Both the position numbers and the translations under genes were made by a program. This document shows, in pieces, positions 7,316 to 39,483 of a stretch of 41,228 nucleotides of DNA; the first letter of the stretch is position 1; each line of letters starts with the position of its first letter. The notes beneath the pieces were generated by a model. The model ran no database searches, was not told the DNA's origin, and worked only from the letters and a program-made list of their open reading frames with translations. Origin of the DNA: an uncultured Thermoanaerobaculia bacterium (GTDB lineage: Bacteria; Acidobacteriota; Thermoanaerobaculia; Thermoanaerobaculales; Sulfomarinibacteraceae); NCBI GenBank assembly GCA_964497785.1, contig CAZCEX010000001.1:1-41228 (forward strand). The letters run 5' to 3'.

Positions 7316-9733
7316 TCACCGCCCACGCCGCCACCTCTTCCAGTGCATCCACAATCCCCAGAGGAAGATCACCGGACCGAGGAGGATGGCGCCCCAGAAG
7401 GCGAAGCCGGCGCGATTGGCGAGGTCCTGCATCGGGTTGGCGCCGAATGGGCTGTCGTTGACCTGATAGGTCCAGGTCGATGAGGGGCCGAGCAGGCCCT
7501 CTCGCTGCCAATCAACACCTTTCTCAGTGACCGTGATCCGGTCGAAAAGCTCGACGACACGGCTGTCGATTTCCGGTCGTAGACGCCCGAAAGCCTCGCC
7601 CGCCTCGCGCCAGAACTCTGCGAGGGGATTCTTTCCGGCAACGCCGACAACGTGAATTCCGTCCCGGATTCTGCCGACCTCTTCCAGATGGTCGCTCCAG
7701 GCACGGTCGATGGCGATCAGGGTGAGACGTCGCTCGATCAGGGACAAACCCTCGTCGCCGACGAGGGCCCGAACCGTCTTGGTTCGTTTTGGACGATGTT
7801 CGCTGATGAGGTTCAGGGGGATCAGACCGTCGAGGATGTTCTGCCGCCAACTCTGGATGTGCTGGCGCTGAGTCTCGACGAGGTTCGTATAGTCCCACAA
7901 GCGGCGTCGTACGGTGATGTTTTCGCCTTCGATGATGCGTTGGGCGCGGTCGATTTCACGCCGAAGCACGGCGCTCTCGATCGGCTCTTCCTGTTCCTTC
8001 GGGAGGTAGCGTGGCGCCACCAGGTTGCGCACTCCGTAGCGTGAAATGAGTGGATCCGTCAGGCTGGTGAAAAAACGCGAGGCGCCAGGGTCTCCTTGAC
8101 GTCCGGCTCGCCCACGGAGCTGCTGGTCGATGCGCAGGCTCTCGTGCCGATTCGTACCGATCACGTACAGACCACCAAGCGCGACCACTTCCTCACGATC
8201 GGTTTCGGAAGCGCCGCCGAGGCGGATGTCGGTCCCACGACCGGCCATGTTGGTCGAGATGGTGACCGCCCCTACGGCCCCGGCGTCGGCGATGATCTCG
8301 GCTTCGAGTTCGTCGTTCTTCGCGTTGAGCACCTGACAAGAGACTCCTGCATCGGCGAGTTTTGCCGCAAGCTCCTCAGACTCCGCAACACTGGCCGTAC
8401 CGACCAGGATCGGTCGTCCGGCGTCGTGCACACCGGCGATCTCCCTGACCAGGGCCCGCCGCTTGGCCCGCTTGTGGGTGAAGACCCGGTCAACGTGGTC
8501 GACCCGCCGGCACGGCTGGTGGAACCCAACGACGGTGACCTCGAGGCCGTAGTAACTTTCAAGCTCCTCGGTAGCTGGACGGGCCGTTGCCGTCATGCCG
8601 CACAAACGGTCGTAGGTTGTCAGAAAGTGCTGCATGGTGATCGAGCCGAGCACCTGCCCTTCATCCCCCGGACGGAGTGCTTCCTTGGCTTCGATCGCTG
8701 CCTGTAAGCCGTCCGGCCATTGGCGCCTGTCGGCGACTCGGCCAGTGAAGTCGTCGACCAGCTCGATCGCTCCGCCGCGAACGATGTAGTCGACATCGCG
8801 ATGGATCAGGTTCTCGGCGTGGAGGGCGTTTCTGAGGTGTGCGAGGAAGGCCTGGTTGTCTGGGGCGTAGAGGTTCTCCAGCCCGACGATCTCTTCGACT
8901 CGAGCCGAGCCCTGATCGGTGAGGAATATGTTGTGGCCATGCTCGTCGGTGTCGAAGTCCACGTCCTGCGTCAAGCGCCGGACCAGGTCCGCCATCGCCG
9001 CCAGACCGTCGGCCGGTTCGGTGCAGGCGCCGGCGATGACGAGCGGTATGCGGGCCTCGTCAACGAGGATTGAGTCCGCCTCATCCACCAGGGCAAATGC
9101 AGTGCGCTGCTGGATACGCTGCTCGCCGTCAAGGCAGAGCCGCTCGCGGAGAAAATCGAACCCCGCCTCCCTTGCAGTGAGATAGGTGACGTCGCAGGCA
9201 TAGGCGCGACGCTTCGCCTCGACCGTCATGCCTTCCTGGATGCTGCCGACATCGAGGTTGAAGACCTCGTAGATGGGGCTCATCCATGACGCGTCCCGTC
9301 GTGCGAGGTAGTCGTTTGCAGTCAATACATGAGCCCCAGATCCAGTGAGGGCATTGAGCACGACCGGCGCGACAGCCGCAAGCGTTTTTCCCTCGCCAGT
9401 CTGCATCTCGACGACCCGGCCTCGATGCATGGCGATGCCGGCGATCATCTGTTCGTCATAGGGTCTTTGAGCCAACGTCCGACAGGCCACCTCGCGCACG
9501 AGTGCGAAGGTTTCGCAGAGCAGGTCGTCCGACACCAGAGGTCCTTCGGCCTGGGCGTGGAGCCCTTCGGCTCTACGGAACAGAGTCTGGTCCTCGAGTG
9601 CACCGAGAGAATCCCCGAGGAGATTGATGCGTTCGAGAAGAGAAGTGAACGGGCGGATATCAGTCGCCGCCGTGGCGCCAGTCAAGTTTCCCCAAAGGCG
9701 GTTCAGGGGAGAGGGTTTACTCGGAACGGCCAT
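7316..9733 (-). CDS. secA: SecA-family preprotein translocase ATPase, atypical form with a C-terminal predicted transmembrane helix
   Basis: Motor motifs are complete: MQTGEGKTL (Walker A), LVDEADSILVDEARIPLVI (DEAD), TNMAGRGTDIRLGG, LRGRAGRQGDPG. An HSD-like block follows (IDRAWSDHLEEVGRIRDGI...NPLAEFWRE). It ends ...RAGFAFWGAILLGPVIFLWGLWMHWKRWRRGR*. I chose the start at MAVPSKPS (ATG 9733-9731) because the track's longer ORF (to 9934) would overlap the end of the upstream kinase gene. Confidence 0.85.
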   Translation of the reverse strand: MAVPSKPSPLNRLWGNLTGATAATDIRPFTSLLERINLLGDSLGALEDQTLFRRAEGLHAQAEGPLVSDDLLCETFALVREVACRTLAQRPYDEQMIAGIAMHRGRVVEMQTGEGKTLAAVAPVVLNALTGSGAHVLTANDYLARRDASWMSPIYEVFNLDVGSIQEGMTVEAKRRAYACDVTYLTAREAGFDFLRERLCLDGEQRIQQRTAFALVDEADSILVDEARIPLVIAGACTEPADGLAAMADLVRRLTQDVDFDTDEHGHNIFLTDQGSARVEEIVGLENLYAPDNQAFLAHLRNALHAENLIHRDVDYIVRGGAIELVDDFTGRVADRRQWPDGLQAAIEAKEALRPGDEGQVLGSITMQHFLTTYDRLCGMTATARPATEELESYYGLEVTVVGFHQPCRRVDHVDRVFTHKRAKRRALVREIAGVHDAGRPILVGTASVAESEELAAKLADAGVSCQVLNAKNDELEAEIIADAGAVGAVTISTNMAGRGTDIRLGGASETDREEVVALGGLYVIGTNRHESLRIDQQLRGRAGRQGDPGASRFFTSLTDPLISRYGVRNLVAPRYLPKEQEEPIESAVLRREIDRAQRIIEGENITVRRRLWDYTNLVETQRQHIQSWRQNILDGLIPLNLISEHRPKRTKTVRALVGDEGLSLIERRLTLIAIDRAWSDHLEEVGRIRDGIHVVGVAGKNPLAEFWREAGEAFGRLRPEIDSRVVELFDRITVTEKGVDWQREGLLGPSSTWTYQVNDSPFGANPMQDLANRAGFAFWGAILLGPVIFLWGLWMHWKRWRRGR

Positions 9734-9752
9734 TCGGTGCCCGTATGTTTGC

Positions 9753-11348
9753 TCAATCGCGGTCGAGCGCCTGGCGGACGCGCCGCGCCAATGTGGCCCC
9801 CGAGTAGGGTTTCTCGAGCACCTCATCGGGAGAGAGGGCGAGCAGGTGGTCCGTCGAGTACGTGGTATATCCCGTTGTGAATACGACTCGGGGTTCGTAT
9901 CCCCTTTGGCGCAAGCTTTCCACGAGCTCGACACCGCCCATATTCGGCATGACCAGGTCGGTGAGCACCAGGTCGATGTCTGCGCCGGCCTCGTCCCAGA
10001 TCCGCAGCGCTTCGAGGCCGTCGGAGGCGAACAGGACGGTATATCCTTTGCTGCAAAGCACCGTTTCTACCAGGGTGGACACTGCGGGCTCGTCCTCAAC
10101 GACGAGAATCGTCTCGTCGCCCCCCTCTGCTGTTCCTCGGTTGTTTGTCCGCTCGTGAGACGGGTTTTCGACGGAAAGGGGCAGGACGATTTCGATCGTG
10201 GTTCCCGATCCGACCTGGCTGTGAATTCCGACGGTGCCTTTGGCCTGCTGCACGATTCCGAGGGTCGTCGACAGGCCCAGACCGGTGCCATGCCCGACCT
10301 CCTTCGTCGTGAAGAAGGGGTCGAAGGCGTGGCTGAGCGTCTGTCCGTCCATGCCACTGCCGGTGTCGGAGACGGCCAGCCGGGCATAGGATCCGGGAGG
10401 CAGCCCCTGCGGCGCCGGCTCCGAGGGTGCGATCTTGCTGAGCATGAGCCTGATGGTGCCACCCTCAGGCATGGCATCGCGGGCGTTGGTAACGAGGTTG
10501 ACGACGACCTGCTCGATCTGCCCACTGTCGGCGAGGACCGGCAGTGGGTGCTGATCGAGCTGCACCTCGAGGTGAACGTTCTCACCGATGAGCCGGCTGA
10601 GCATCTTCTCGACCTCGCTGATGATGGAGTTCAGCTCGATGACCTTCGGCTGAACTTTCTGCTTGCGGCTGAACGCCAGGAGCTGGCGTACGAGCGTGGA
10701 TGCCCGTTCTCCCGCTTTGCGAATCTCTGCGACCTGCTCGAGTAGATCGGGTCTCATCGACAGTGACAGCTCGAGCAGCTCACTGTGGCCGACGATCGCA
10801 ACGAGCAGGTTGTTGAAGTCGTGGGCGATGCCACCCGCCAGCAGACCGACCGCCTCCATCTTCTGTGCCAGTCTGTAGCGCTCCTCCAGTTGCTTGCGCT
10901 CGGTGATGTCACGCCACACCACATGGAGGAACCGTTTGGACTGCTTCTCGACCGCCGTCAGGAGGACTTCGACCGGGAAGACCTCGCCGTCCGCCCGGCG
11001 GTGGTGCCATTCGAAGCGGTGATTCCCCTGCTCGAAGGCGGTTCGGATCATTTCGTCGGCCTTCTCCCGCGAGCTTCTGCCGTCTGGCTGGTACGGAGGG
11101 GAGAGCTCAGAAGGATGGGTCTGCAGGACCTGCTGTCGGTCGGAGCAGCGCAGCATCTCCACCGTCGCCTGGTTGCAGTCGACGAACTGTCCGTCTTCGA
11201 TGATCAGGATGGCGTCGGAGGTGTGCTCGAAGAGATCCCGGTAAGGATCCGTCGGTGCTCTCAAGGGATCCGGTTGCAACGGCCTTTCGTTTGATTCAGA
11301 CACCGGCGCTCCAGAGGTGACGCATGAGAGCCAGTATACAAGGGGCAC
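9753..11348 (-). CDS. Hybrid sensor histidine kinase (PAS - HisKA - HATPase_c - receiver)
   Basis: PAS-like N-terminus ([27 protein letters not shown]...). H-box [11 protein letters not shown]. ATPase blocks [11 protein letters not shown] and DTGSGM...GTGLGLS. C-terminal receiver [10 protein letters not shown]...[14 protein letters not shown]. Start is uncertain (GTG 11348 or an internal GTG). Confidence 0.85.
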
Positions 11349-11380: not shown

Positions 11381-11419
11381 AACGCCTGGGTCGAAACCCA
11401 GGCGCCGCCGGTGAAAGGG
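11381..11419 (-). terminator. Candidate intrinsic terminator downstream of the repeat-lipoprotein gene
   Basis: Minus strand reads GGCG-G-CGCCTGGGT-TTCG-ACCCAGGCG-TT-CGCC followed directly by TTTTTG. That is a 13-bp GC-rich stem with small bulges plus a T-run, about 45 nt after the stop at 11464. Confidence 0.55.
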
Positions 11420-11463: not shown

Positions 11464-11952
11464 TTAGGAGGCAGTCTCTTTCTCGGAGGCTGGCTCGGTG
11501 TTGGACGCCAGCAGGGCTGTTGCGGTCTTCGCGGCCTCGTCAGCTGCTGCGCCGGCGGTTTTGGAGCAACCGCTCTCTGCGTAGGTCGTATCGTAGGCGG
11601 CCTGCTTGGCAGCGGTGGCCGCGGCGCTCGTCGCCGACTTCGAACATCCACTCGCTTCTTGTACGGCGGCGTAGGCGGCCTTGGTGGCCGACTTGGAGCA
11701 GCCGGTCTCGGCGTAGGTGTTCTTGTATGCCGCGGTGGCCATAGCGTCGTTGGCGGCCTTCTGCGCGGTCTTGGCGCATCCGGAGTCGGCCAAGCTTGCG
11801 TCATATGCTGCCTTGGCCGCAGCCTTGGGGCAACAGCCTTCCTTGGCGTCGGCGGTCTTGGCGCCGGCCGCGTCCTTATCGCATGCGACGACGGTACCGG
11901 TGAGTCCTAGGGCGAGGATCGCTACTGCACAGATGAGAAGGGTCTTTTTCAT
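11464..11952 (-). CDS. Ala-rich repeat lipoprotein with one Cys per repeat (function unknown)
   Basis: Start moved to MKKTLLICAVAILALGLTGTVVAC (lipobox-like VVAC), preceded by a perfect AAGGAG RBS. The mature part consists of units ending ...Y-x-x-x-[YLQ]A[ED][ST]G and restarting C[SA]K[ST]A (SGCAKTA, TGCSKSA, SGCSKSA, SGCSKTA), plus an EGCCPK. Confidence 0.75.
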   Translation of the reverse strand: MKKTLLICAVAILALGLTGTVVACDKDAAGAKTADAKEGCCPKAAAKAAYDASLADSGCAKTAQKAANDAMATAAYKNTYAETGCSKSATKAAYAAVQEASGCSKSATSAAATAAKQAAYDTTYAESGCSKTAGAAADEAAKTATALLASNTEPASEKETAS

Positions 11953-11982
11953 TTCGAGTCTCCTTTTTCTTTCTCTAATAAT

Positions 11983-12011
11983 ATTGAAACACATTCCCTT
12001 TTATTTTGCAA
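11983..12011 (-). promoter_or_regulatory. Possible sigma70-type promoter for the repeat-lipoprotein gene, inside an AT-rich island
   Basis: Minus strand reads TTGCAA-N17-TTCAAT, about 30 nt upstream of the RBS. The surrounding ~165 bp (11953-12117) are conspicuously AT-rich compared with the rest of the window. Pattern match only. Confidence 0.25.
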
Positions 12012-12117: not shown

Positions 12118-13983
12118 TCACCATGCTACGCGGAAGCCTGCCGCAAACCTGCGGCCGGGTGCGGGATAGCCGTAGACTTCTGCATAGTCTCGATCGAGGA
12201 GGTTGGTCGCTCGCACCGTCACCTCGATCATCCTCCACGCCTGGCAAGCCAGGGCAAGATTCGCAGTGACAAAGCTCTCCGCAGTGACCGTGGCAAACGA
12301 AGTCGGGTCGACATCTTGGCGGGCGCCGACGTATTGCACGGTGAAATCGCCGCGCAGCCGATCGAAAGCCCTTCCGTGGAGGGTGTAGGCGCCGCTCCAT
12401 TCCGGACGCCTCAGGAGCTGGTCGCCGGACCCATCGGATGTGTCGAGCCATGTGAGGTCGATCGACGACTGGAGATTCTCAGTGTGTGGCACGGCAAGGC
12501 CCGCTTCGACGCCGTTGATCGTCGCTTTACCGACGTTCTGCATTGTATAGCTCGCGAAGTCGAAGAAGATCAGGTTGTCGATCTCGGTCCTGAAGGCGTT
12601 GAGCTGCCAGCTCGGTCCCCGGGGGCCCTTGGCCTGGAAACTGAGCCCGATCTCCGCCGAGCCCGAGGTCTCCGGCCGCAAGTCCTGGTTTCCGGATCCG
12701 GGAAAGTAGAGCTCGCCCAGCGAAGGCTCGCGGAATGCCTCCCCATACCCGACCGTCAGGGCGATTACGTCGCTGAGGCCCCAGCCAATGTGTGCTCGCG
12801 GTGACAGCTGAGAACCCCACTCGTCGGTGTGATCCCATCGGGCCCCGATGATCAGGTCGGTTCGATCGCCCAGGCCCCAGACATCCTGGACGAAGAGGCT
12901 CTCGGTCCTGCCAGTCGCGTCGTCGAGGTTGGTCCCGAAACTGCTCGAGGCGGTGACCGAGTCCTCGCGCCACTCGGCGCCCCACGTGATGGTGTGATGT
13001 GCGATGCCGTGGTGGGACGCCAGGCGAACCTGTGAGGTGTCGGCCACTGTGTGCGACGTCGTCAGGCCAAAAGGGTCGTCGGGGTCGGAAAAATTGAAAT
13101 CGCGCTCGACGAGAGACCCGGTGGCCTCGATTTTCCACTTTTCCGACAGCTGCCACTGGAAAGGAATCGCCAGCGTGCGCTGTTTGTTCGTCTCCCGTCG
13201 CGATGGCGTCGCCTGGCCCGGCGAGGAGTAGGGGATGCCGAGATCTGAGTCGACGTCGTGATAGACGAGCCCTACTCTGCCGCCCTCGGTCCAACTCCAG
13301 CCGGCATCGACAACAGCCTGGCGGATGTCGAAGTCGGAGTTGTTGAGATCTGTGTCGCCGCTGCGAGTCGAAGCCGACGCGTAGAGATCGAACCTCTCGT
13401 GACCGTATGTCATGGAGGCGTCGAGCCGTTGCCCCGATCCGGCGCCAACCTCCCCGAAAGCGGTTCCGTGAAAACCGTTTCGTCCCCGTCCGGTGATGAG
13501 GTTGACCACCCCTCCCACCGCGTCGGCGCCCCACAGTGCCGAATAGGGTCCGCGAGCGACTTCGATGCGGTCGAGACCGCTGGTGACGAGGTGGCTGAAA
13601 TCGTAACCACCGAAATAGGGTGAGTTCAGGCGCACACCGTCGATCATCACCAGGGTGCTGTTCGAGTTGTTGCCGCGGGTGAAGACCGAGGTCAGGGCGC
13701 CGGGACCTCCACTTTGCATGACCACGACTCCTGGGACCCTGCGCAGCATGTCGCCGACCGTATCGGCCTGGGCGTCATCGATCTCCGACCGGGATATGAC
13801 GGTGACGGGCAGTGGGACATCGGCGGTCGATACCGGTTCTCCGATCGCTGTCACGGTGATTTCTTCGGAGAAGGTGGCTTCCTCCTCGGCGGTTGCTCCC
13901 GCAGGCTCGTCGGTCGCTCCTGCAGAAATCGCCAGGAGTGTTGCCAGAAAAAATGCAAAGGGGATGACTCGGCGGACGGACAT
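12118..13983 (-). CDS. btuB: TonB-dependent outer-membrane receptor, BtuB-like (cobalamin uptake inferred from its riboswitch leader)
   Basis: Start set at MSVRRVIPFAFFLATLLAISAGA, with GGGAGG RBS upstream. TonB-box-like EEITVTA. Plug blocks (DMLRRVPGVVV, FTRGNNSNSTLVMIDGVRLN). C-terminal barrel ends ...AAGFRVAW*. The ~620-aa size matches BtuB-class receptors. A cobalamin riboswitch lies immediately 5'. Confidence 0.85.
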   Translation of the reverse strand: MSVRRVIPFAFFLATLLAISAGATDEPAGATAEEEATFSEEITVTAIGEPVSTADVPLPVTVISRSEIDDAQADTVGDMLRRVPGVVVMQSGGPGALTSVFTRGNNSNSTLVMIDGVRLNSPYFGGYDFSHLVTSGLDRIEVARGPYSALWGADAVGGVVNLITGRGRNGFHGTAFGEVGAGSGQRLDASMTYGHERFDLYASASTRSGDTDLNNSDFDIRQAVVDAGWSWTEGGRVGLVYHDVDSDLGIPYSSPGQATPSRRETNKQRTLAIPFQWQLSEKWKIEATGSLVERDFNFSDPDDPFGLTTSHTVADTSQVRLASHHGIAHHTITWGAEWREDSVTASSSFGTNLDDATGRTESLFVQDVWGLGDRTDLIIGARWDHTDEWGSQLSPRAHIGWGLSDVIALTVGYGEAFREPSLGELYFPGSGNQDLRPETSGSAEIGLSFQAKGPRGPSWQLNAFRTEIDNLIFFDFASYTMQNVGKATINGVEAGLAVPHTENLQSSIDLTWLDTSDGSGDQLLRRPEWSGAYTLHGRAFDRLRGDFTVQYVGARQDVDPTSFATVTAESFVTANLALACQAWRMIEVTVRATNLLDRDYAEVYGYPAPGRRFAAGFRVAW

Positions 13984-14002
13984 CGTGAAACCTCCCGTTT
14001 CG

Positions 14003-14236
14003 GCTCGGGGAATGGCAGGTCTCCTGGCTTCCGGATGTGATCTTTTTGGCCCAAGGCCTGAAAGATCCGCCGAACCGCCTCGCCTTCCCAGCTGGGTGTC
14101 ACCCAACCAGTGGCTGGCTCGACTCCGATTGTCGGAGCTCTGCCTCGAGTGGTTCGTCCCCGGTCACAGTGGCGGGGGCCGCGCCGGTTTCACACCGGCT
14201 TCCCTCACCCGACCGAAACGACCGACGGCGCCCGAT
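14003..14236 (-). promoter_or_regulatory. Cobalamin (B12) riboswitch in the leader of the BtuB-like gene
   Basis: Minus strand reads ...GGGTGAGGGAAGCCGGTGTGAAACCGGCGCGGCCCCCGCCACTGTGACCGGGGA...GCCACTGGTTGGG...CTGGGAAGGCG... This is followed by a textbook B12 box AGCCAGGAGACCTGCC (plus-strand 14014-14029), then the GGGAGG RBS and ATG. Confidence 0.9.
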
Positions 14237-14374
14237 TGCGCCTTGAGCCGCCCCGGCGGGCTCAACCATTCCCATTTGTCCCGGTCACAGTAGGTGCCTT
14301 GGGGCCCCGGGTCAAGAGGGCTGTGTTAGTGTTTGGCGGTCTTGGCGATTTATTTGGAGCGGCTCTTCGTGAAA

Positions 14375-16552: not shown

Positions 16553-16613
16553 CCCTGGTCATCGAGTTGGGCGAACGGCCTCATACGACACGTCGGTGAG
16601 ATACACTCCGCCG

Positions 16614-18962
16614 ATGAGGTTGGTCTTGTCGAAGCGGTGGTTGGTATTTCTTCTCATGGTCGGTGGAATGGTTGGCGCCGAAGGACTGCCGCCTGGTGAT
16701 CATGATCGCTCTCGAGGCGAAGAGGAGAGGATCCGCCAACGGGAGCAATGGTTCTTCGAAAGCCGCGGCCTCGGCGGTGTTGAGCGACCGGATCTCATCC
16801 GCGCCAGCGCGGTGGAGCAGTTGAGGTCGGCCTCTGAAGGTGGGCGGGACATCCTGACTCGGTGGCGCAACCTCGGTCCGGAGAGCATGACGATGTTTGA
16901 CTGGGCCATGGGCAATGTGGCCGGGAGGGTGGCGGCGCTGGCCGTGGATCCGACCGACGAAAATACGATGTATCTCGGGGCCGCCTCAGGTGGGTTGTGG
17001 AAGACCGTCAACGGCGGCGCCTCGTGGGCGCCCATTTTCGACGACGTCGGAACGCAGACGATCGGCGCGATCTTCGTCGATCCCGCCGATTCGGATGTGG
17101 TCTGGGTTGGAACCGGAGAGCAGGGCCAGTCGTGCGGATCGTACTTCGGTCTCGGCCTGTTTCGTTCGCAAGATGGCGGCGCCACGTTCGAGGCCGTCAA
17201 CGGAACCCCGAGCCACCCCCTGCGGTTGTCCTACATTTCGAGCATCGTCGTGCACCCTCAGGATGCGCAGATCGTACTCGCCGGTGGCCATGGTTGGTGC
17301 TCGAACGGCACCTACTACGGTGGCGGACTCTACCGGTCAACCGACGGCGGCGCTACATGGTACCTGGAACTCTCAGGGCCGATGACCGACATCCTGGTCG
17401 ATCCCAATGAGCCGGGCACCATGTATGCGGCCATGGGCCGATGGGCGTGGTCCAACGACGGAATCTACAAGTCGACGGACGGTGGTTCCGCCTGGACGAG
17501 ATTGACAAACGGGATTCCCTACGGCGAGTCGGTAGGGCGAATCCGAATTGCAGCAGCATCCCAGAACCCCCAGATTCTGTATGCGCTCGTCAACAACGCG
17601 TCGAATTCCGCCAGCGGGCTCTACCGATCCGAGGACGGGGGCGCCCAATGGTCCCTTCAAAACGACGACGCCTGTGAAGGTCAATGTTGGTACGATCTCT
17701 GCCTGGCAGTCGATCCATTCAACAGCAATACCGTGCTGGTGGGATCGATTCGTTTCGCCCGGTCCACTGATGCCGGTATCACCCTCGAGTACTTGACCGA
17801 TGGCTGGGGAGGCGACCAGACGGTTCACCAGGACACCCATGTCCTGCTCTTTTCGACACGCGCTTATGGTCGATTCTGGGTCGGCTCGGATGGGGGACTG
17901 TGGAGAACCGACAACAGTGGGGTCGGATTCACGAACCTCAATGCAAACCTCGATGTGACGCAGTTCTACGATATTGCGGTGCATCCCAGCGATGGCGAGA
18001 TTATTTTTGGGGGCAGTCAAGACAACAGCTCGAGTCGGCGTAATGCTTATCAGGTCTGGGATACGACCGTGGTGTCGGGTGACGGCTTCATGAACCTCGT
18101 GAGCCCCGAGGACCCGAATACGGTATTTCAAACGAGCTATCCGTGGGGCGACAAACCCTCGATCTGTAAATCGGTGACAGGCGGAGGTCCGGGCAGCTGT
18201 TGGTGGATGAGCACCGACGGGATCGGTTCGGGCGAACCCTTTCCGTGGGTCACGCCGCTCGCCGTGTCGCACGCTGGGCCCGGTATACCGGCTCAACTAT
18301 TCGTGGCCTCGCACTCGGTCTACCGCGGCAGGGCCGATCAGTCGTCGTCGGCCTTCGAGTGGACGAAGATCTCGGGTGCTCTCACCGAAGACGAGTCGCC
18401 GGTCTCGGTGCTGGCGTCCCACTTCGACGGGCAGTCGGTCATCCTCTATGTCGGTACGGCCAACGGGCAGATCTGGCGCAATGACGACGCCATGGCGGGG
18501 ACCGCATGGCAGGACGTGACCGGCGCATACCCGGGCGGACGGATCAGCGACATCGCGGTCGATCCGACGCAGCCGGATCGGCTATTTGTCACCCGCAGTG
18601 AGTTTGGCGGCTCGAAGGTCTTCCGCTCCTTGACGGGTGGCGTGAGTTGGGCCGCCGCTGGTCAGGGGCTGCCGAATGTCCCCGCGAACACCGTAGCCAT
18701 CGATCCGGTGAACCCATTCAGGGTCTTTGTCGGCAACGATGTGGGTGTTTTTGAAAGCCTCAACGGGGGCGTTTCATTCACTCCGTCGACCAGAGGTTTA
18801 CCGCTCGGCGTGGTCGTCACCGACCTCGAGATCGATGACGACCCGCACTTGCTGACAGCCGGCACCTACGGCCGCGGCGCCTGGCAGAGAGACCTCGACC
18901 AGAATGTCAGCGGGATCTTCACTGATAATTTCGAGAGCGGTACCACCGACGCGTGGCGGTAA
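16614..18962 (+). CDS. Secreted BNR/Asp-box repeat beta-propeller protein (sortilin-VPS10 / GH74 / Ycf48-like architecture); carries the C-terminal tail
   Basis: Multiple SxDxGxTW-type boxes: SQDGGATF, STDGGATW, STDGGSAW, SEDGGAQW, STDAGITL, TDNSGVGF, LTGGVSW, LNGGVSF. Signal MRLVLSKRWLVFLLMVGGMVGAEG. Ends ...GIFTDNFESGTTDAWR*. Start could also be GTG 16596. Confidence 0.75.
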   Translation: MRLVLSKRWLVFLLMVGGMVGAEGLPPGDHDRSRGEEERIRQREQWFFESRGLGGVERPDLIRASAVEQLRSASEGGRDILTRWRNLGPESMTMFDWAMGNVAGRVAALAVDPTDENTMYLGAASGGLWKTVNGGASWAPIFDDVGTQTIGAIFVDPADSDVVWVGTGEQGQSCGSYFGLGLFRSQDGGATFEAVNGTPSHPLRLSYISSIVVHPQDAQIVLAGGHGWCSNGTYYGGGLYRSTDGGATWYLELSGPMTDILVDPNEPGTMYAAMGRWAWSNDGIYKSTDGGSAWTRLTNGIPYGESVGRIRIAAASQNPQILYALVNNASNSASGLYRSEDGGAQWSLQNDDACEGQCWYDLCLAVDPFNSNTVLVGSIRFARSTDAGITLEYLTDGWGGDQTVHQDTHVLLFSTRAYGRFWVGSDGGLWRTDNSGVGFTNLNANLDVTQFYDIAVHPSDGEIIFGGSQDNSSSRRNAYQVWDTTVVSGDGFMNLVSPEDPNTVFQTSYPWGDKPSICKSVTGGGPGSCWWMSTDGIGSGEPFPWVTPLAVSHAGPGIPAQLFVASHSVYRGRADQSSSAFEWTKISGALTEDESPVSVLASHFDGQSVILYVGTANGQIWRNDDAMAGTAWQDVTGAYPGGRISDIAVDPTQPDRLFVTRSEFGGSKVFRSLTGGVSWAAAGQGLPNVPANTVAIDPVNPFRVFVGNDVGVFESLNGGVSFTPSTRGLPLGVVVTDLEIDDDPHLLTAGTYGRGAWQRDLDQNVSGIFTDNFESGTTDAWR

Positions 18963-18991: not shown

Positions 18992-19199
18992 TCAACGCAG
19001 AGGCGCAAAGGCGCAAAGGCGCAGAGAAGGAGAACCGGTAGAACCTTCGTATTCGGTAGGTCGTGACGCGTTGGCTGTGAGGCCAGCCTCCTGAGTTTCT
19101 CAGCGGGAGACCAGCAGGCCCGTATGGCGAAAAATCGTTCAGAAATTCCCTTTTTTCATAACTTTACGTCTTTGCGCCTTTGCGTTGATCTCTTCCTAC
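18992..19199. repeat. REP/MITE-like element: inverted CGCAAAG-repeat arms flanking ~130 bp, between two convergent genes
   Basis: Left arm is TCAACGCAGAGGCGCAAAGGCGCAAAGGCGCAGAG (18992-19025). The reverse complement of the right arm (19167-19190) is TCAACGCAAAGGCGCAAAGACG, matching 18/19 over the core. The right arm abuts the stop codon of the S8 protease gene (19196-19198). A related element occurs at 37795-37875. Confidence 0.7.
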
Positions 19200-20719
19200 T
19201 CGATCGTTTCGGACCACGCGGAGGTGTTGCCGGTCTCGAACCCGTCGGAGAAAAGCTCGAGCGGGCTGATGAGGAGGGCGGCGTTGACGGCGGCGAGGGC
19301 ATCGATCCGGCCCCAACCGTAGACGTTGTTCGGGACGTCGGTCGGTCCGTCCCCGCCGCAGCCTTCGTTGGTCGTGAGTGGGACCGCGGTATCGCGGATG
19401 ATCTGCTCGATGGTGTCGACGTCGCCTGCGAGGTTGGGGTTGGCCGAGATCATCAGGGCGACGAGGCCGGCAACGTGCGGGCCTGCCATGCTGGTTCCAT
19501 TCCAACCGCCGTCGTAGGAACCGTCTCGAGTGCTCGATCGGATGTCTACCCCAGGAGCGGAGATGTCCGGTTTCAAGCGGTTGCTGTTGTCGACGGTGAC
19601 CGGGCCACGGCTCGAGAATCCGGCGATGTCGTCGATCCAGTCGGTGGCGCCGACCGAAAAGCTCGCGTCGTAGGTAGCAGACGGTGTGGCGACGCTGCTG
19701 CAGCCGGAGCCCTCGTTGCCGGCCGAGTGGACCGTGACGATTCCCGCTGCGCGGACATTGTCGACGACGGTGAGCAGAACGTTGGGATCGGTGCAACCTT
19801 CGCTTTCGGGACAGCCCCAGGAGTTGTTGATGACGTGCGGCGCGAGGTCGGGGTTTGGGTTCAGGCCCGCGAGATCGGTCGGGGCCATGAAGAACTGGTA
19901 ACACTCGGTATAGGTCGCCGGTGTGCCGTCGCCCTGGTCCATGTTGCGACAGGCGATCCATTCGGCGCCAGGCGCCATGCCGACCTGGTTGCTGCCGCCG
20001 TCGTCGCCGATGATGGTGCCCATGGTGTGGGTGCCGTGGCCGTGGTCATCGCACGGTTCTGGGGAGTCACCAATGCAGCTCCCGGAGCTCGAGTGCACAG
20101 CATCGTGCCAGTTGTAATCGTGGTTCCCTGCGCCGCCACGGTACTGATTGACGAGGGCGGTGTGGCTCCAGAGATAGCCGGTGTCCTGACCCGCGACGAC
20201 GGCGCCGCTGCCGTTGATTCCGAGGGCCCATACGAGGTCTGCTCCGACGTGGGAGATGTTCCACTCGACGCCGCGCATCGCCGGGGCGCTGGTGTGGGCT
20301 GGGTCGAGCGTGCTGACGTGCACGCGCGGGTTCGCGCTGATGCGCTTCACGTCGACTCGTTCCGCCATCGCCCGTACGGTGTTGATGCCACCACGGACCC
20401 AGATCATGTTGGCCACCCAGTAGGCGCGGTGCTCGACTCTGGAGGCTGTGAGCGCTGCGAGTACCGGTCCCTGAGTAGCGGAGGCCGTCGCCGTCAGGCG
20501 TTTGTAGACGGCGCGTCCCTTTGCGGCCTTGCTTCGAAGGAGCTTGATAGCGCTCAGGTCAGCCTGCTCCTCGAGGACGACGAGGAACTCGGTCTCACCC
20601 GCCCGGCTGGTATTCAACACCCAGGGATCGACCTTCGAAACCCACGCTTGATCGCCAGCGCCAAAACACAAAGATGCAGCTGCGATCAGCAAACAACAGA
20701 AAAAGAATCGCGTCTTCAT
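19196..20719 (-). CDS. Secreted subtilisin-like serine protease (S8) with N-terminal propeptide; carries the C-terminal tail
   Basis: Catalytic triad blocks in order: VVAGQDTGY (Asp), HGHGTHTMGT (His), GTSMAGPHVAG (Ser). Signal MKTRFFFCCLLIAAASLCFGA. I9-like pro-region. Ends ...ELFSDGFETGNTSAWSETIE*. Confidence 0.9.
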   Translation of the reverse strand: MKTRFFFCCLLIAAASLCFGAGDQAWVSKVDPWVLNTSRAGETEFLVVLEEQADLSAIKLLRSKAAKGRAVYKRLTATASATQGPVLAALTASRVEHRAYWVANMIWVRGGINTVRAMAERVDVKRISANPRVHVSTLDPAHTSAPAMRGVEWNISHVGADLVWALGINGSGAVVAGQDTGYLWSHTALVNQYRGGAGNHDYNWHDAVHSSSGSCIGDSPEPCDDHGHGTHTMGTIIGDDGGSNQVGMAPGAEWIACRNMDQGDGTPATYTECYQFFMAPTDLAGLNPNPDLAPHVINNSWGCPESEGCTDPNVLLTVVDNVRAAGIVTVHSAGNEGSGCSSVATPSATYDASFSVGATDWIDDIAGFSSRGPVTVDNSNRLKPDISAPGVDIRSSTRDGSYDGGWNGTSMAGPHVAGLVALMISANPNLAGDVDTIEQIIRDTAVPLTTNEGCGGDGPTDVPNNVYGWGRIDALAAVNAALLISPLELFSDGFETGNTSAWSETIE

Positions 20720-24277: not shown

Positions 24278-27200
24278 CTACACCGGCTCCGAAGTTCCAG
24301 CCGCGATGCGGTTGCGACCTTGCAACTTCGCCTGATAAAGGCCGCGATCGGCCACATTCAGCAGCTCGTGGGGATCGTCGTTGATTCCCGGTGTCAGACT
24401 GCCGACGCCACAGCTGACGGTGACTCGACCGGGATCGGACGACGAGTCGTGCCGCAACCGAAGCTCGGAAACCGTCGTTCGTAGGAGATCCGCGACCGTC
24501 AACGCGCCGGCGGTGTCCGTTGTCGGCAAAATAACCGCGAACTCGTCGCCGCCGTATCGGGACACCGAGTCGCCCGACCGCGGCAGGGCGTCGGCTATGG
24601 CTGCTGCAACGACCTTGAGGCACTGATCGCCCTCGGCGTGGCCCAGACTGTCGTTGAGGTTTTTGAAGTGGTCGACATCGATGAGGATGAGTGAAAGTAC
24701 CTGGTGGGAGCGGAGGGCACGCTTCCACTCGTTCTGGAGCAGCTCGTCGAACCTGCGGCGATTGCCCACGCCGGTCAAGCTGTCTGCGTAAGAAAGCTCG
24801 ACAAGGAGTTCATTCGCTTCTTCGAGGCGACGAGTGCGCGCATCCACGAGGGCGGCCAGGCACCGTTCGCGCTCGCGAATCGCGCGCAGTCGCCACTGCA
24901 GGATGAGGTACGCCACCAGGGCGGCGAGCCCGAGGAAGAAGCCGTAGGCCCATAACGATTCCCAGGGTGCAGGTTTGACGGAGAAGGGGAAGTCCTGCGG
25001 CCCGGAGACGTTACCGGCAGAATCTCGCCCCCAGACCCGGAAGGTGTAGTGACCTCGGGCGAGGGTCCGATATTCGCTCTTGGCGTCTTCGGTCCACCGA
25101 GATGGTTCTTCGTCGAGACCGATGAGCTGGGTCTGGTAGCGGGTCTGATTCTGGTGAAAAAACGACAGCAATGCAAAATCGAAGGTGATGTGTTTTCGAT
25201 CGAAAGGAAGGTGGACCTCTGGTGTGAGGAACTCGTAGGGCTCCGACCCGGATCTTGCCTCGAGTACCAGCGGGTCCGGGGATCGGTCCTCTCGCTCGTA
25301 TGTCGGGTCCAACACAGCTGCTCCGCCGACGGTGCCGACCCAGATTCTCCCCGCGTGGTCGACGGTCGCGGCGCCTCTGTTCCCCTCGTTGAGAGGCAGA
25401 CCGTCCTGACCAGAATAGGTGTTGATAAGGTAATCGTGAGGGGATGTCGAATTCGGTCCGGTAGGGGTGAGGCGGGCAACGCCGGCGTTTGTCAGCATGT
25501 AAATCCGACCGGAACTGTCCTCGACGATGGCGGAGATGACGTTGTTCGGCAAGGCCGGATGTGTCGAGTCCGTCAAGGTAAAAAGGGTTCTCGGTTGTTG
25601 GTCGAGGTCAAGAACAGAGACGCCCCCTCCATCAGTGCCGATCCAGAGGAGCCGTCGCCCATCCGCCGTGCGATGGAGGTGGAGGCACTGGATGGAGCTG
25701 TTGAGGAGGGGTGGATCGAGAGCTATTGTCTGCCATTGGCCCTGGCGGAGGACCGCAAGACCGGCAACGGTGCCGGCCCAGAGAGCTTTTGTTCCATCGG
25801 GCTCGGAGGTCTCGAGGAGGCTGAGAACAGATTCGTTGGGGAGACCGTCCCGGCGTGTTACCTGCGTCCAATGTCCATCCTCGTAACGCGCCAATCCAGA
25901 TCTGGTGCCGGCCCAAAGGACCAGCTCTCCGTCTGCACCCCGAGTATGCAGAAGGGTCTGGATCATGTTCGACGGGAGATTGCCGGACTCCTCCGAAAAA
26001 ACGCTCCACCGGTTGTGCTCGAATCGCCCGAGACCCCCGGTCCTGGTTCCAACCCAGAGTATTGGAGAGCCGTCTCGCCCACTACTACCGAGAAGGCACT
26101 GGATCACTGTGCTCGGGAGCTCGGTCTTGAAGTGGGTCCAGGTTCCTTCCCGAAATCGAAAGACACCCTCGCCATCGGTTCCCAACCACATCGAAGATGA
26201 GCCCTGACTCTCGTGGAGCTCTTCGATGGCGTTGACCGGTGTCGCCGCTGGTCCCTCGGTCGGGGAAAAACGCCTCCATGTGCCGTCGGTCAGTTGGGCG
26301 AGGCCCCCGTTTCGGGTGCCGACCCAGAGCATTCCCGGTCCGGATTCCGGGTGCATTTCGACCACGCTGTACACACCGTTCGAAGGCAGTCCCGACGCGG
26401 TGTCGACGATGTCGATTCCGGCGGAGGAGAGGCGGGCCAGCCCACCGCCGTCGGTGCCGGCCCATAAAACGGTGCCTCCGTCTCCGGATCGCCTGACGGC
26501 CAGGCTCGTCAAGAAATTGCTGGGAAGACCGTCGACGGTCGTGAGCTGTGTCCAGGCCCCGTCTCGCAAAACATGCAGCCCGCCACCGTAGGTGCCGACC
26601 CACATTGTCGGGGGCGCCCCTGGAGGCCGGTCGAAGGCGAAGCTGTTGACCGAATCTGTTGGGAATCCTGGCTCAGTGGTGAATCGTTCTGCCCCAGGCA
26701 AAAGGATAGCCAGGCCTCCCTCAGTCCCAGCCCAAATGATTGAACCGGAGGAGGTTTCTTCCACAGCCAACCCCCATAAGCGATTACTGGGAAGCCCGTG
26801 CTCGGTCGTGTAGAGGGTCCACTCATTTTCCCGGAATCGGGCGAGCCCGGCGCCGTAGGTGCCTGCCCAGATCTCCGCGCCGCCGGTTGGGGAATTGTTT
26901 TCGGCGAGGGCATGGATTCGGTCACAGTCAGGCTGGTCACAGAGGGGAACCACTTCCGACCATTGCTCGCCCACCCGTCTGAACAGGCCCCCTGCCCGGG
27001 TTCCGAACCAGATGCTGCCGTCAGACGCGGGCAGAATCGCGCGTACGAAGTTCGATTCGTACCGACTGGGCATCGGGACGACGTGCCAGGTTCGGCCGTT
27101 GTAGAAGGCGGCGCCGTCCTGAGTGCCGATCCACAAAAAACCCCGGTTGTCGACGGCGATGGTCTGAACGGTGTTGTGGGGGAGACCGTCGGAATCGGTG

Positions 27201-27427
27201 TAGTGGCGGAAAGAAAGTGCTGCCTGATGATAAGGATCTGGGCCCGCGCTGCTTGTGGCCCAGACTCCCCCGACAATCCCGAGCACGATGACGGAGACGA
27301 GCAGCACGGATGCCATCGACTCAGACGAAAAGATCCGTCCCCGAACTTCCGAGGCGAAGGTCGACGAAGCACGCCACGAAGTCCCAATATTTAACCCGAA
27401 AAGATCAATCATCTTTTCAGAATACAC
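24278..27427 (-). CDS. Diguanylate cyclase with a large periplasmic two-component-regulator-propeller (Reg_prop) / Y_Y_Y sensor, one TM helix and a C-terminal GGDEF domain
   Basis: Many repeats of the type GLPSN.V..I..D..G.LW[IV]GT..GG. A Y_Y_Y-like segment (YRTLARGHYTFRVWGRD), then TM GFFLGLAALVAYLILQW. GGDEF domain has RYGGDEFAVIL and an RSGD I-site 5 residues upstream. Start is uncertain (27427, 27412 or 27316). Confidence 0.85.
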   Translation of the reverse strand: MYSEKMIDLFGLNIGTSWRASSTFASEVRGRIFSSESMASVLLVSVIVLGIVGGVWATSSAGPDPYHQAALSFRHYTDSDGLPHNTVQTIAVDNRGFLWIGTQDGAAFYNGRTWHVVPMPSRYESNFVRAILPASDGSIWFGTRAGGLFRRVGEQWSEVVPLCDQPDCDRIHALAENNSPTGGAEIWAGTYGAGLARFRENEWTLYTTEHGLPSNRLWGLAVEETSSGSIIWAGTEGGLAILLPGAERFTTEPGFPTDSVNSFAFDRPPGAPPTMWVGTYGGGLHVLRDGAWTQLTTVDGLPSNFLTSLAVRRSGDGGTVLWAGTDGGGLARLSSAGIDIVDTASGLPSNGVYSVVEMHPESGPGMLWVGTRNGGLAQLTDGTWRRFSPTEGPAATPVNAIEELHESQGSSSMWLGTDGEGVFRFREGTWTHFKTELPSTVIQCLLGSSGRDGSPILWVGTRTGGLGRFEHNRWSVFSEESGNLPSNMIQTLLHTRGADGELVLWAGTRSGLARYEDGHWTQVTRRDGLPNESVLSLLETSEPDGTKALWAGTVAGLAVLRQGQWQTIALDPPLLNSSIQCLHLHRTADGRRLLWIGTDGGGVSVLDLDQQPRTLFTLTDSTHPALPNNVISAIVEDSSGRIYMLTNAGVARLTPTGPNSTSPHDYLINTYSGQDGLPLNEGNRGAATVDHAGRIWVGTVGGAAVLDPTYEREDRSPDPLVLEARSGSEPYEFLTPEVHLPFDRKHITFDFALLSFFHQNQTRYQTQLIGLDEEPSRWTEDAKSEYRTLARGHYTFRVWGRDSAGNVSGPQDFPFSVKPAPWESLWAYGFFLGLAALVAYLILQWRLRAIRERERCLAALVDARTRRLEEANELLVELSYADSLTGVGNRRRFDELLQNEWKRALRSHQVLSLILIDVDHFKNLNDSLGHAEGDQCLKVVAAAIADALPRSGDSVSRYGGDEFAVILPTTDTAGALTVADLLRTTVSELRLRHDSSSDPGRVTVSCGVGSLTPGINDDPHELLNVADRGLYQAKLQGRNRIAAGTSEPV

Positions 27428-27977: not shown

Positions 27978-29354
27978 ATGAATAGAAGAACGCTCTTCAT
28001 ACATACGATTTTCGTCGTATTGGTGATGGGTATAACATCGGTTGGGAGGGCGCGCGGGGCGGATTCGGTTCCCCCGGACCTCCCCGCGAGTGGGTGGCAG
28101 GCGGATCCGGCGGCAGCGATCATCGAAGGTCTCGCTGACGCGGATCTCCAGCTCTTAGCGTGGGAGGTCTTGGACCGCAACCCGGGCCTTGCCGCGGCGG
28201 TAGCTGACGCGCGGGCTGCGAGTGCGAGGACTGCGCAGCGACAGAGCCTGCCCGACCCGATGCTCGCCGTCACCTGGTTCGCCATGAGTCCGCAAACGAG
28301 GGTCGGTCCGCAGAAAGCTGGCGTGAGTCTTGCGCAACGCCTGCCGTGGTTCGGCAAGCTCGATCTCCAGGGCAGGGCGGCGGCCCTTGACGCGATTGCC
28401 GCCGACGCGCGGGTCGAGGCATTGAAGATCGAGCTGCTGACGCGAACCCGCACCCTGCACCAGGAGCTTCTCTTCGAGGACGTTCAGGAGCAGATCTTAG
28501 ACGAAGAGCGTTCGGCGTTGGAGAGGTTCGAGGAGTTGGCTCGTGCTCGCTACGCATCAGGTGCCGGGCACCGGCAGGCGGTCGTCAAGCTGCAGGCGGA
28601 GATCACCCGCGCCGACGCCCGTCGGTTGGGCATCGATCAGCGGCGCGCCGAGCTGACTGCGGCCGTCAACGTTCTGAGAGATCTCTCTTCGCACACGGCT
28701 GTGCGCCTCGCACGCGGGGACCGGCATTTCGATCTCCCTGTCGACCTTGTTTTCCTGCGAACCAGAGCGGTTGTCGCCCGTCCTGAAGTAACGGCTGCCG
28801 ACGCCGAGGTGGCTGCGGCTGACGTCAGGGTTCAACTCGCGGCAAAACGGCGATCCCCGGACGTCACGGTCGGACTGAGCTACGGGTTCGTGGGGCGTCG
28901 TGACGACGCAGCCGGTGAGGCAAACCCACCGCAGGGAAACGGCAACGACATCCTTGCCCTCAGCGGGGGGATCAACCTGCCGGTGTGGTCCAAGGCTCTC
29001 GACGCCGGCGTCGAGGAGACGGTGCAGAAACGTCTTTCTGCCGAAGAACGACGGCGAGCGGTCATCGCCGTGATCGAGGGTGAGCTCGGTGACGTCGCTC
29101 GGCGTATCCCCGTCATGCGCGAACAGCTCGAGCTCTTTGAGCAGACCTTGCTCGTGCAGGCCCGGGAGAGCCTGCATTCGGCTGAAATCGCCTATGCGTC
29201 CGGCACGGGGGGCGCGCTCGACCTGCTCGACGCCGAGAGGACGCTCCATGAGATCCGGCTCGGTGCCGAGCGCACCCGTGCCGACCTCGCGATTGCCCGA
29301 GCGCGTCTTGAGGGCGTGATTGCTGGACCGCTTGTAATGGATTGGGAGGACTGA
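27978..29354 (+). CDS. cusC: TolC-family outer-membrane efflux factor (CusC/CzcC-like)
   Basis: Signal peptide, then two-fold repeated coiled-coil/beta pattern (LSLPDPMLAVTW..., TVGLSYGF..., ARARLEGVIAGPL). Its stop overlaps the next gene's ATG (TGATG). GGAGGA RBS. Confidence 0.8.
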   Translation: MNRRTLFIHTIFVVLVMGITSVGRARGADSVPPDLPASGWQADPAAAIIEGLADADLQLLAWEVLDRNPGLAAAVADARAASARTAQRQSLPDPMLAVTWFAMSPQTRVGPQKAGVSLAQRLPWFGKLDLQGRAAALDAIAADARVEALKIELLTRTRTLHQELLFEDVQEQILDEERSALERFEELARARYASGAGHRQAVVKLQAEITRADARRLGIDQRRAELTAAVNVLRDLSSHTAVRLARGDRHFDLPVDLVFLRTRAVVARPEVTAADAEVAAADVRVQLAAKRRSPDVTVGLSYGFVGRRDDAAGEANPPQGNGNDILALSGGINLPVWSKALDAGVEETVQKRLSAEERRRAVIAVIEGELGDVARRIPVMREQLELFEQTLLVQARESLHSAEIAYASGTGGALDLLDAERTLHEIRLGAERTRADLAIARARLEGVIAGPLVMDWED

Positions 29355-30712: not shown

Positions 30713-30746
30713 TGATGGCGAGCGCACAGATTCGTGGAGCGTCGCC

Positions 30747-39218: not shown

Positions 39219-39483
39219 CAAAGACCCTCCGCTGGTCCATTCTCGGGGTATTGCTGGCCGAACGGTGTGACGACCCTCACGGCCTCATTCGTGACGGTTT
39301 ACGCAACCGGTGTTCTTCCCAGCGCCGGCCTTCTGGGATGCCGTAGGACGGTCATCCCAGCGTCGCATGAGCAGCGCGGTCGCGCGGAGAAGGTTGGATC
39401 GTCTGCGACCACGCTGCTCAAGCGAGCGGCGGCCTACCTCGTAGACTGGAGATCACGGTCGCAACGACCTCCCCGGGCATTGC

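Follow-up and report, generated by a model that had tools for sequence, protein, structure and literature searches.

The stretch of DNA analysed here, hereafter the window, is 41,228 nucleotides (nt) long and comes from an uncultured Thermoanaerobaculia bacterium of the Acidobacteriota, an origin to which its nearest relatives also point. Its minus strand carries an intact gene for a SecA2-type ATPase, preceded by the gene of a soluble hybrid histidine kinase and met at its 3' end by a convergent gene with a TerB domain (Table 1). The longest minus-strand open reading frame (ORF) spans 7316..9934, and the ATG at 9733 starts a protein of 805 amino acids (aa) followed by a stop codon. The SecA motor motifs quoted in a preliminary description of this DNA (MQTGEGKTL, LVDEADSILVDEA, TNMAGRGTDI and RGRAGRQGDPG) are all found in the translation, and the length of about 805 aa given there was verified. 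The protein matches the Pfam families SecA_DEAD, SecA_PP_bind (the preprotein cross-linking domain), P-loop_SecA and SecA_SW (the wing/scaffold family), and its motor, clamp, scaffold and two-helix finger are intact. We think it reasonably likely that the protein is an accessory translocation ATPase of the mycobacterial SecA2 type that has acquired a C-terminal membrane anchor.

That the protein is a mycobacterial-type SecA2 is supported by a curated hidden Markov model (HMM), by a shared deletion of the helical wing domain and by a signature around STWTY. It scores 791.9 bits against TIGR04221 (SecA2_Mycobac), whose cutoff is 725, and covers profile positions 4-753 of 762. All housekeeping SecA models give scores below their cutoffs (score/cutoff: TIGR00963 722/800, PRK12904 738/814, PRK09200 653/862, PRK12901 544/1493), and so do three other SecA2 models, among them TIGR03714 with 539 against 930. 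Nine relatives from six phyla, representing both tail types described below, behave in the same way, all passing TIGR04221 (789-869 bits) and failing every housekeeping model; a Rhodothermales member reaches 570 against the cutoff of 1493 for PRK12901, the Bacteroidota-type housekeeping SecA. The earlier suggestion that the protein resembles accessory SecA2 proteins, made from its size and the lost C-terminal domain, is strengthened by this pattern.

Structural comparison points in the same direction. The best sequence match in the PDB is SecA2 of Mycobacterium tuberculosis (4UAQ, E 6e-164), which aligns to residues 45-769 of the query with no gap for a wing domain; the alignment of housekeeping SecAs to the window protein breaks off near residue 636, at the start of their helical wing domain. 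An AlphaFold2 model of the 805-aa protein (predicted local distance difference test, pLDDT, 76.9; predicted template-modelling score, pTM, 0.71) has helices at 588-634, 648-697, 703-716 and 718-732 in the scaffold and finger region. As the long scaffold helix 588-634 runs directly into the helices of the two-helix finger, the wing domain is absent from the model, a loss on which the preliminary description had not remarked. The significant Foldseek matches are all SecA proteins; 4UAQ leads them in identity (40%) and, if full-length chains are compared, also in target-normalised template-modelling score (0.75). P750, T753, T755 and Y756 of the signature are invariant in the family alignment. 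Given this shared signature, and given that M. tuberculosis SecA2 ends about nine residues after it, the window protein has the mycobacterial-type SecA2 architecture, to which a C-terminal module of linker, helix and polybasic segment has been added.

The protein is very probably an accessory paralog rather than the housekeeping SecA, judging from its HMM class, the coherence of the family across phyla, its presence in Clostridia, the occurrence of tandem copies and the variable gene contexts. One could suppose instead that it is the single housekeeping SecA of these lineages, streamlined to do without wing domain and zinc finger and anchored in the membrane: the 41-kb window holds no second secA, and all the motor, clamp, scaffold and finger elements for translocation are present. 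We regard this as very unlikely. The protein fails the four NCBI housekeeping SecA models and passes the SecA2 equivalog model, and the family stays coherent, at about 49-58% identity, across phyla whose housekeeping SecA types differ, as the Rhodothermales score against PRK12901 illustrates. It also occurs in Clostridia, including the isolate Alkaliphilus peptidifermentans, where a canonical SecA is expected, and it is found in tandem copies in one locus (L064) and in highly variable, non-housekeeping gene contexts.

The C-terminus of the window protein, ...RAGFAFWGAILLGPVIFLWGLWMHWKRWRRGR (also given as ...LANRAGFAFWGAILLGPVIFLWGLWMHWKRWRRGR), contains the most hydrophobic 19-residue segment of the whole protein (Kyte-Doolittle 1.86, starting at residue 776). 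AlphaFold2 draws residues 775-804 as a single helix after a low-confidence linker at 757-776. The same layout is seen in all 120 nearest homologs, which are the best 120 matches in a collection of 5.8 billion proteins (55-63% identity, 774-904 aa). In these homologs the uncharged run has a median length of 23 residues (range 20-38) and always contains an internal proline (120/120). The median net charge is +1 in the 10 residues before the run and +5 (range 2-7) in the 12 residues after it, and a median of 15 residues (range 6-65) lies between the run and the C-terminus. W798, just ahead of the basic cluster, is kept in at least 90% of 44 aligned members.

The preliminary description had named a frameshift or assembly artefact as a possible source of the hydrophobic tail, with a canonical tail to be recovered in another frame. 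We give this possibility virtually no credence. The tail recurs in 120 of 120 homologs from independent assemblies, and a protein of 100% identity was assembled independently from a second sample (L001). The Cys/His zinc-finger motif C.C.SG...C[HC] is absent from every frame near the 3' end and from the rest of the window, and just 30 nt separate the SecA2 stop codon from the end of the convergent TerB-domain gene. The absent motif and the conserved tail together rule out a hidden canonical tail, and the replacement of the Cys/His tail by a hydrophobic helix and a basic cluster, as first described, is borne out as a conserved feature.

To see how widely the tail occurs, we refer to a scan of GTDB, at one genome per species, with the pattern P[SA][SA]TWTYLV, which gave at least 600 matches, at least 594 of them confirmed as relatives; the comparisons of tails and neighbours concern the best 79 of these at least 594 loci. 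A hydrophobic helix with a polybasic tail is found in about 64 of the 79, in Thermoanaerobaculia, Vicinamibacterales and other Acidobacteriota, Anaerolineae/Chloroflexota, Rhodothermales and Myxococcota, and further in Aminicenantes, a Desulfobacterota-like metagenome-assembled genome (MAG) and a few Clostridia. Complete chromosomes with a member of the family include OZ253457.1, OZ242003.1, OZ244838.1 and OZ252227.1 (Vicinamibacterales) and OZ244956.1 (Rhodothermales). Another 14 of the 79 loci (Pirellulales, Phycisphaerae, Holophagales, Ruminiclostridium, Alkaliphilus) have a short basic tail without a hydrophobic span. These short tails are strongly amphipathic (hydrophobic moment 0.51-0.82) and resemble classical membrane-targeting helices. 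That sister lineages (Planctomycetota, Holophagales and some Clostridia) carry an amphipathic basic tail at the same place suggests that a C-terminal membrane-binding element is a theme of the family. The hydrophobic and basic tail is also clear in 89 of the 150 best representatives of 50%-identity clusters carrying the C-terminal module, these representatives being mostly fragments. Taken together, the family appears to be an undescribed, large cross-phylum variant of mycobacterial-type SecA2, defined by a module of linker, proline-containing hydrophobic helix and polybasic segment.

Two irregularities were seen among these loci. The SecA2 gene is split across frames, giving multiple tblastn segments, in L007, L015, L028, L034, L050, L054, L058 and L077; such split genes are assembly errors or pseudogenes, and in L054 the tail is lost by the frameshift. 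In a Holophagales MAG (L064:1378-10333), a stretch of 9 kb contains three SecA2-type genes or gene fragments in tandem, of the kind with a short amphipathic tail.

Several observations weigh against an anchored, mycobacterial-type SecA2 and have to be set beside the evidence above. Phmmer scores are nearly tied between M. tuberculosis SecA2 (550.6 bits), Clostridioides difficile SecA2 (547.7) and Thermotoga maritima SecA (546.8), so that the affinity to mycobacterial SecA2 rests mainly on architecture, the STWTY motif and the curated HMM. The finger tip reads ...HVVGVAGKNP..., with a valine in place of the canonical tyrosine of Escherichia coli; the family mostly has leucine, valine or phenylalanine there, and bulky hydrophobic residues are reported to be tolerated at this position. 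The tail probably anchors the protein in the membrane, which is read from hydropathy, conservation and the AlphaFold2 helix only. Finally, if the motor is cytoplasmic and the helix spans the membrane, the polybasic segment would have to be periplasmic, contrary to the positive-inside rule, and this conflict implies that the simple picture of a tail anchor may be wrong.

The tail-anchor picture can be examined feature by feature. The protein has no N-terminal signal or transmembrane segment and a single hydrophobic segment at residues 775-798 of 805, as a tail anchor should. Across the homologs, however, the part behind that segment is neither short nor weakly charged: the first 12 residues carry a net charge of +5 (2-7), and the C-terminus is reached after a median of 15 residues and in the extreme case after 65. 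Basic residues stand on both sides of the run (R774 before it, KRWRR after it), with the invariant central proline within. ElaB and YqjD of E. coli are C-tail-anchored proteins of the bacterial inner membrane without a signal peptide, whose single helix at the extreme C-terminus is followed by basic residues, only about two residues in all. Compared with these, the SecA2 family has a long basic end that is hard to square with a translocated C-terminus. The earlier proposal of an integral transmembrane anchor therefore stands as regards the conserved hydrophobic helix and its basic cluster, and is in difficulty as regards topology, as the net +5 end breaks the positive-inside rule. The tail may be a kinked or re-entrant monotopic anchor with both ends in the cytoplasm; the helix may be packed into a site on a protein, such as the lateral gate of SecY or the clamp of SecA; or it may be a genuine but unusual tail anchor. 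The AlphaFold2 helix is drawn straight and does not tell these alternatives apart. We slightly favour a polybasic end that stays in the cytoplasm, the helix being kinked, re-entrant or embedded in a protein; a classical tail anchor, with its N-terminus inside and its C-terminus outside, seems to us a little less likely.

A rival reading is that the tail is no lipid anchor but a built-in pseudo-substrate or docking element. The linker and hydrophobic helix would insert into the SecA clamp or the SecY lateral gate, with the polybasic end in the cytoplasm, and the effect on the motor would be autoinhibition, priming or attachment to a single channel. Such an element would obey the positive-inside rule, unlike a plain tail anchor; the hydrophobic run is variable except for its invariant central proline and near-invariant W798, which hints at specific packing beyond mere hydrophobicity, and the disordered linker of about 20 residues would give the needed reach. 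The C-terminal tail of canonical SecA, too, occupies the substrate groove and modulates activity (PMC6620043). Nevertheless, the order of elements is reversed relative to a signal peptide, the hydrophobic part coming first and the basic part second, and the sister clades have at this place simple amphipathic helices typical of lipid binding. We consider a docking element unlikely, and continue with a membrane anchor as the preferred reading.

We turn to the genes around the SecA2 gene. At the junction of the kinase and SecA2 genes the sequence runs TGA, 19 nt, ATG. Because of this short gap and the lack of a terminator-like site within it, co-transcription of the two genes, as proposed in the preliminary description, is plausible. 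The hairpin upstream of the kinase (Table 1) is the only terminator-like site of that strand and likely marks the 5' boundary of a kinase-SecA2 transcription unit. Kinase and SecA2 probably form a two-gene operon, with the kinase first, and only in this organism. Neither the 79 GTDB loci nor five contigs from the closest relatives have an orthologous kinase beside SecA2, which rules out a conserved kinase-SecA2 operon; the question raised earlier, whether the adjacency persists in relatives, is answered in the negative for every relative examined. L084 does have a hybrid kinase two genes away from SecA2, but on the opposite strand; its identity of 44% is confined to the catalytic core and receiver, and its sensor region differs.

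Other genes recur upstream of SecA2 in relatives. At least 11 loci, among them those of three of the five closest relatives examined, encode a protein of about 295 aa directly upstream, with gaps of -41 to +15 bp. Its 138 homologs are all labelled hypothetical, and the family has no sequence match in Pfam, NCBIfam or the PDB. At least ten of these homologs lie on contigs equal in length to that of one of the 120 best SecA2 matches. The confident AlphaFold2 model (pLDDT 89.8) has an N-terminal winged helix and long coiled-coil helices, with weak fold matches of PadR, ArsR and MukF type. The family is not encoded in the window, even by HMM search, and so this partner cannot explain the locus studied here; in other close relatives nothing recognisable lies upstream of SecA2. 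In a different subclade, with tails of the type DDPFRNQI..LTGPG, the gene directly upstream encodes a protein of about 78 aa (across loci about 71-94 aa) with a single hydrophobic helix and a C-terminal ...SRAPP... motif. HMM matches to this second family occur also in L042, L050, L072, L075 and L077, and the motif without such a match in L056, L069 and L074; it has no family annotation and is absent from the window.

In a third arrangement, on Vicinamibacterales chromosomes (L002:8121-9930, also L012 and L013), SecA2 is preceded by a PadR gene, a gene for a 294-aa protein and a gene for a 72-aa membrane protein, a set that is not encoded in the window. The 294-aa protein joins a permease-prefix-like N-terminus to a partial SecY; its match to TIGR00967 (107 bits, cutoff 254) takes in profile positions 8-213 of 414, the N-terminal half, and it could be a half-SecY gene or a pseudogene. 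It is the only SecY-related neighbour and is limited to three near-identical genomes. A dedicated SecY2 was rejected on these grounds: the match covers the N-terminal half, lies below the cutoff, comes from three near-identical genomes and is absent from the window. There is no SecY-like gene in the window. In a Pfam census of the 93 immediate neighbours no family occurs in more than two loci, and SecY2, Asp, glycosyltransferase, HlyD and M50 genes are missing. As no SecY-like gene is present in the window and none recurs among the neighbours, the arrangement can be called SecA2-only. That the upstream gene is repeatedly regulator-like, whether it encodes a winged-helix protein, PadR or, as here, a kinase, would fit conditional expression of an accessory factor.

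Table 1. Features of the SecA2 locus in the window, and loci of the two upstream families in relatives (L numbers denote GTDB loci).
Feature	Position	Strand	Basis or remark
SecA2-type ATPase gene, intact, 805 aa	7316..9733	-	ORF and translation, Pfam, TIGR04221, Foldseek; stop codon 7316-7318
Degenerate N-terminal motif, residues 9-17, PLNRLWGNL	9683..9709	-	family alignment; low-confidence model helix 9-17
Nucleotide-binding domain 1 (SecA_DEAD), residues 18-391; Walker A MQTGEGKTL, DEAD-like LVDEADS	8561..9682	-	Pfam PF07517, E 5.7e-94
Preprotein cross-linking domain, residues 245-348	8690..9001	-	Pfam PF01043, E 6.5e-30
Nucleotide-binding domain 2, residues ~407-586; TNMAGRGTDI and RGRAGRQGDPG	7976..8515	-	Pfam PF21090, E 1.2e-61; model secondary structure
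Helical scaffold joined without a wing domain to the two-helix finger, residues 588-732	7538..7972	-	model, alignment to 4UAQ, finger alignment
Family signature P750-D760, PSSTWTYQVND	7454..7486	-	common with M. tuberculosis SecA2
Flexible linker, residues 761-774, last residue conserved R774	7412..7453	-	pLDDT <50 at 757-776
Hydrophobic helix A775-W798 (probable anchor), 24 uncharged residues, central P787, near-invariant W798	7340..7411	-	hydropathy, model, conservation
Polybasic C-terminus K799-R805 (KRWRRGR)	7319..7339	-	charge across 120 homologs
Soluble hybrid histidine kinase, PAS-HisKA-HATPase-receiver, upstream of SecA2	9753..11348	-	Pfam
Terminator-like hairpin upstream of kinase	11381..11406	-	consensus scan, pattern match; such sites fewer than in shuffled sequence
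~295-aa family in relatives	L003:7067-7966, L084:1594-2481, L085:6450-7343, L058:4869-5759, L032:2629-3507, six more		directly upstream of SecA2
SRAPP family in relatives	L049:7631-7864, L060:7654-7887, L062:7531-7917, L070:7637-7873		directly upstream of SecA2

Elsewhere in the window, three predicted secreted proteins (16596-18962, plus strand; 19196-20719 and 37893-39221, minus strand) share the motif F.DGFE.G.T..W at the extreme C-terminus, ending ...FTDNFESGTTDAWR, ...LFSDGFETGNTSAWSETIE and ...LFADGFESGETSRWSPTAP. One is BNR/sortilin-like, one has by eye a subtilisin-like DxG...HGTH...GTSMA pattern, and one looks beta-helix-repeat-like. The shared ending may be a sorting signal. It is unrelated to the SecA2 tail, and a link of SecA2 to these exported proteins, on which the preliminary description had speculated, was rejected for want of support.

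The remaining side observations concern other genes. A cobalamin riboswitch (13997-14238, minus strand; Rfam RF00174, 73.8 bits) stands at the 5' end of a gene for a TonB-dependent receptor (12118-14106, minus strand), which is likely a BtuB-type B12 transporter. Between this gene and the kinase-SecA2 pair, 11464-11994 (minus strand) encodes an Ala-rich protein of 176 aa, possibly a lipoprotein, with no Pfam match. Its hydrophobic N-terminal segment ends ...TGTVVAC, and it has four or five repeats in which GC(S/A)K(S/T)A occurs. In the 1049-aa ORF at 24278-27427 (minus strand), inspection by eye suggests numerous repeats of beta-propeller type, a single hydrophobic helix and, near the C-terminus, the GGDEF-like motif RYGGDEF. 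Beside it, three ORFs at 27978-33929 (plus strand) resemble an outer-membrane factor, a periplasmic adaptor with a metal-binding motif (CPMHPE...CPICGM) and a resistance-nodulation-division pump, which suggests a heavy-metal efflux operon.

To understand how the SecA2 of the window may work, its two ends have to be considered together. The binding of canonical SecA to acidic lipids depends on its N-terminal amphipathic helix, for which an artificial tether can be substituted. The preliminary description had the canonical N-terminal opening as missing; it is degenerate rather than missing, for PLNRLWGNL at residues 9-17 aligns with the basic motif L.RRFRR.L.G found at the equivalent place in many relatives. 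On this alignment, residues 9-17 would be a degenerate equivalent of the lipid-binding N-terminus of canonical SecA. One subclade is without the motif altogether, and the C-terminal module is kept by every member of the family alignment, including that subclade. We propose that the C-terminal anchor would keep the motor on the inner membrane at all times, on its cytoplasmic side, supplementing or replacing the N-terminal lipid-binding helix, and that the linker of about 20 residues would let the motor dock on the housekeeping SecYEG channel, a step proposed because no dedicated SecY2 is linked to the gene. At SecYEG the motor could drive the export or insertion of a subset of proteins, and in this organism it would be expressed from a two-gene transcript with the soluble PAS hybrid kinase. 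Membrane anchoring itself, use of SecYEG, the accessory status and specialisation for certain substrates are the parts of this scheme that we infer.

It might be asked whether the protein works in Sec export at all, or is a SecA-derived ATPase for another task, such as quality control or extraction of membrane proteins or energising another secretion module. Secondary SecA_DEAD proteins beside HlyD, OEP and M50 genes in Gram-negative phyla have been proposed to have a non-Sec role (PMC4452313), and the conserved upstream partners of the present family are uncharacterised. However, unlike the secondary SecA_DEAD proteins, the present one retains its preprotein cross-linking domain as well as a complete scaffold and two-helix finger, and the HlyD, OEP and M50 families do not recur among the 93 neighbours. 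A non-Sec role is in our opinion quite unlikely, and an accessory SecA2 acting in protein translocation remains our preferred interpretation.

Textbooks present SecA as the model of a soluble motor that binds to and leaves the membrane in turn, and SecA2 systems have, to our knowledge, been studied almost only in Gram-positive pathogens. Given a conserved anchored clade across environmental diderm phyla, accessory Sec export may be far wider than assumed. The family would also offer a natural experiment: can a tether to the membrane by itself stand in for the lipid-binding helix of the N-terminus? Mechanistically, topology is the most interesting puzzle, as a cytoplasmic enzyme here ends in a hydrophobic helix and, after it, a polybasic stretch. 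Databases name these proteins SecA or SecA2 with no mention of an anchor, and two tightly linked partner families carry no annotation. A bolder picture, offered as speculation and rather unlikely to hold in full, is that these proteins form a hitherto unrecognised class of permanently membrane-resident SecA motors, widespread in diderm phyla, in which a proline-kinked tail helix with a cytoplasmic polybasic end, re-entrant or at the SecY lateral gate, took over the essential tethering function of the N-terminus, lost entirely in some members. Such motors would serve a regulator-controlled export route for a specific set of proteins, controlled by a hybrid kinase here and by winged-helix partners or small membrane proteins elsewhere.

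How does this family compare with known systems? Our full-text searches of the literature brought up no SecA or SecA2 described as having a hydrophobic anchor at its C-terminus, which agrees with the preliminary description, whose author knew of no SecA class with an integral transmembrane anchor, and no account of SecA2 in Acidobacteria, Chloroflexi or Rhodothermales. A survey of SecA C-terminal tails in 156 species noted 'alternative' and positively charged tails, left SecA2 aside and does not use the word 'transmembrane' (PMC6620043). Secondary SecA_DEAD proteins of Planctomycetes, Verrucomicrobia and others are reported to be related to the actinobacterial SecA2 clade, are without most or all of the wing/scaffold domain and lie beside HlyD/OEP/M50, type I secretion-like genes (Kamneva et al. 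2015, PMC4452313). The main text of that study has no Acidobacteria and uses 'transmembrane' only for SecYEG and M50 peptidases, so that no membrane anchor is reported on those proteins. The window protein is, like them, very probably an extra SecA-like protein in Gram-negative phyla; unlike them, it keeps scaffold and finger and has no HlyD, OEP or M50 neighbours, and its family is a different one.

The SecA2/SecY2 system of streptococci and staphylococci (TIGR03714, TIGR02920) is built on a second SecA paralog, which the window protein very probably is too. The window protein differs from it in its score for TIGR03714 (539 against 930) and in that the window and the 93 neighbours hold no SecY2, Asp or glycosyltransferase genes. 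With the housekeeping SecAs of E. coli, Bacillus subtilis and T. maritima it shares the fold, the catalytic and clamp motifs, the N-terminal motif in degenerate form and, presumably, the need for a membrane surface to work. It differs in falling below all housekeeping HMM cutoffs and in lacking the wing domain and the Cys/His metal-binding domain. Canonical SecA is tethered peripherally through its N-terminal amphipathic helix, whereas the window family has a C-terminal hydrophobic helix, even in members without the N-terminal motif.

The closest counterpart is SecA2 of M. tuberculosis (Rv1821, 4UAQ, TIGR04221), of the 'SecA2-only' kind of accessory system, which is reported to be largely cytosolic. 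Motor and clamp are complete in both, the helical wing domain and the metal-binding tail are missing from both, both carry the P(S/T)STWTY.VND signature near the C-terminus (PTSTWTYMVND in 4UAQ), and neither has a linked SecY2. The mycobacterial type is found in Actinobacteria, and the M. tuberculosis protein ends about nine residues past the signature, whereas the window family is found in diderm phyla (Acidobacteriota, Chloroflexota, Rhodothermales, Myxococcota) and adds at this point the linker, the hydrophobic helix and the polybasic cluster.

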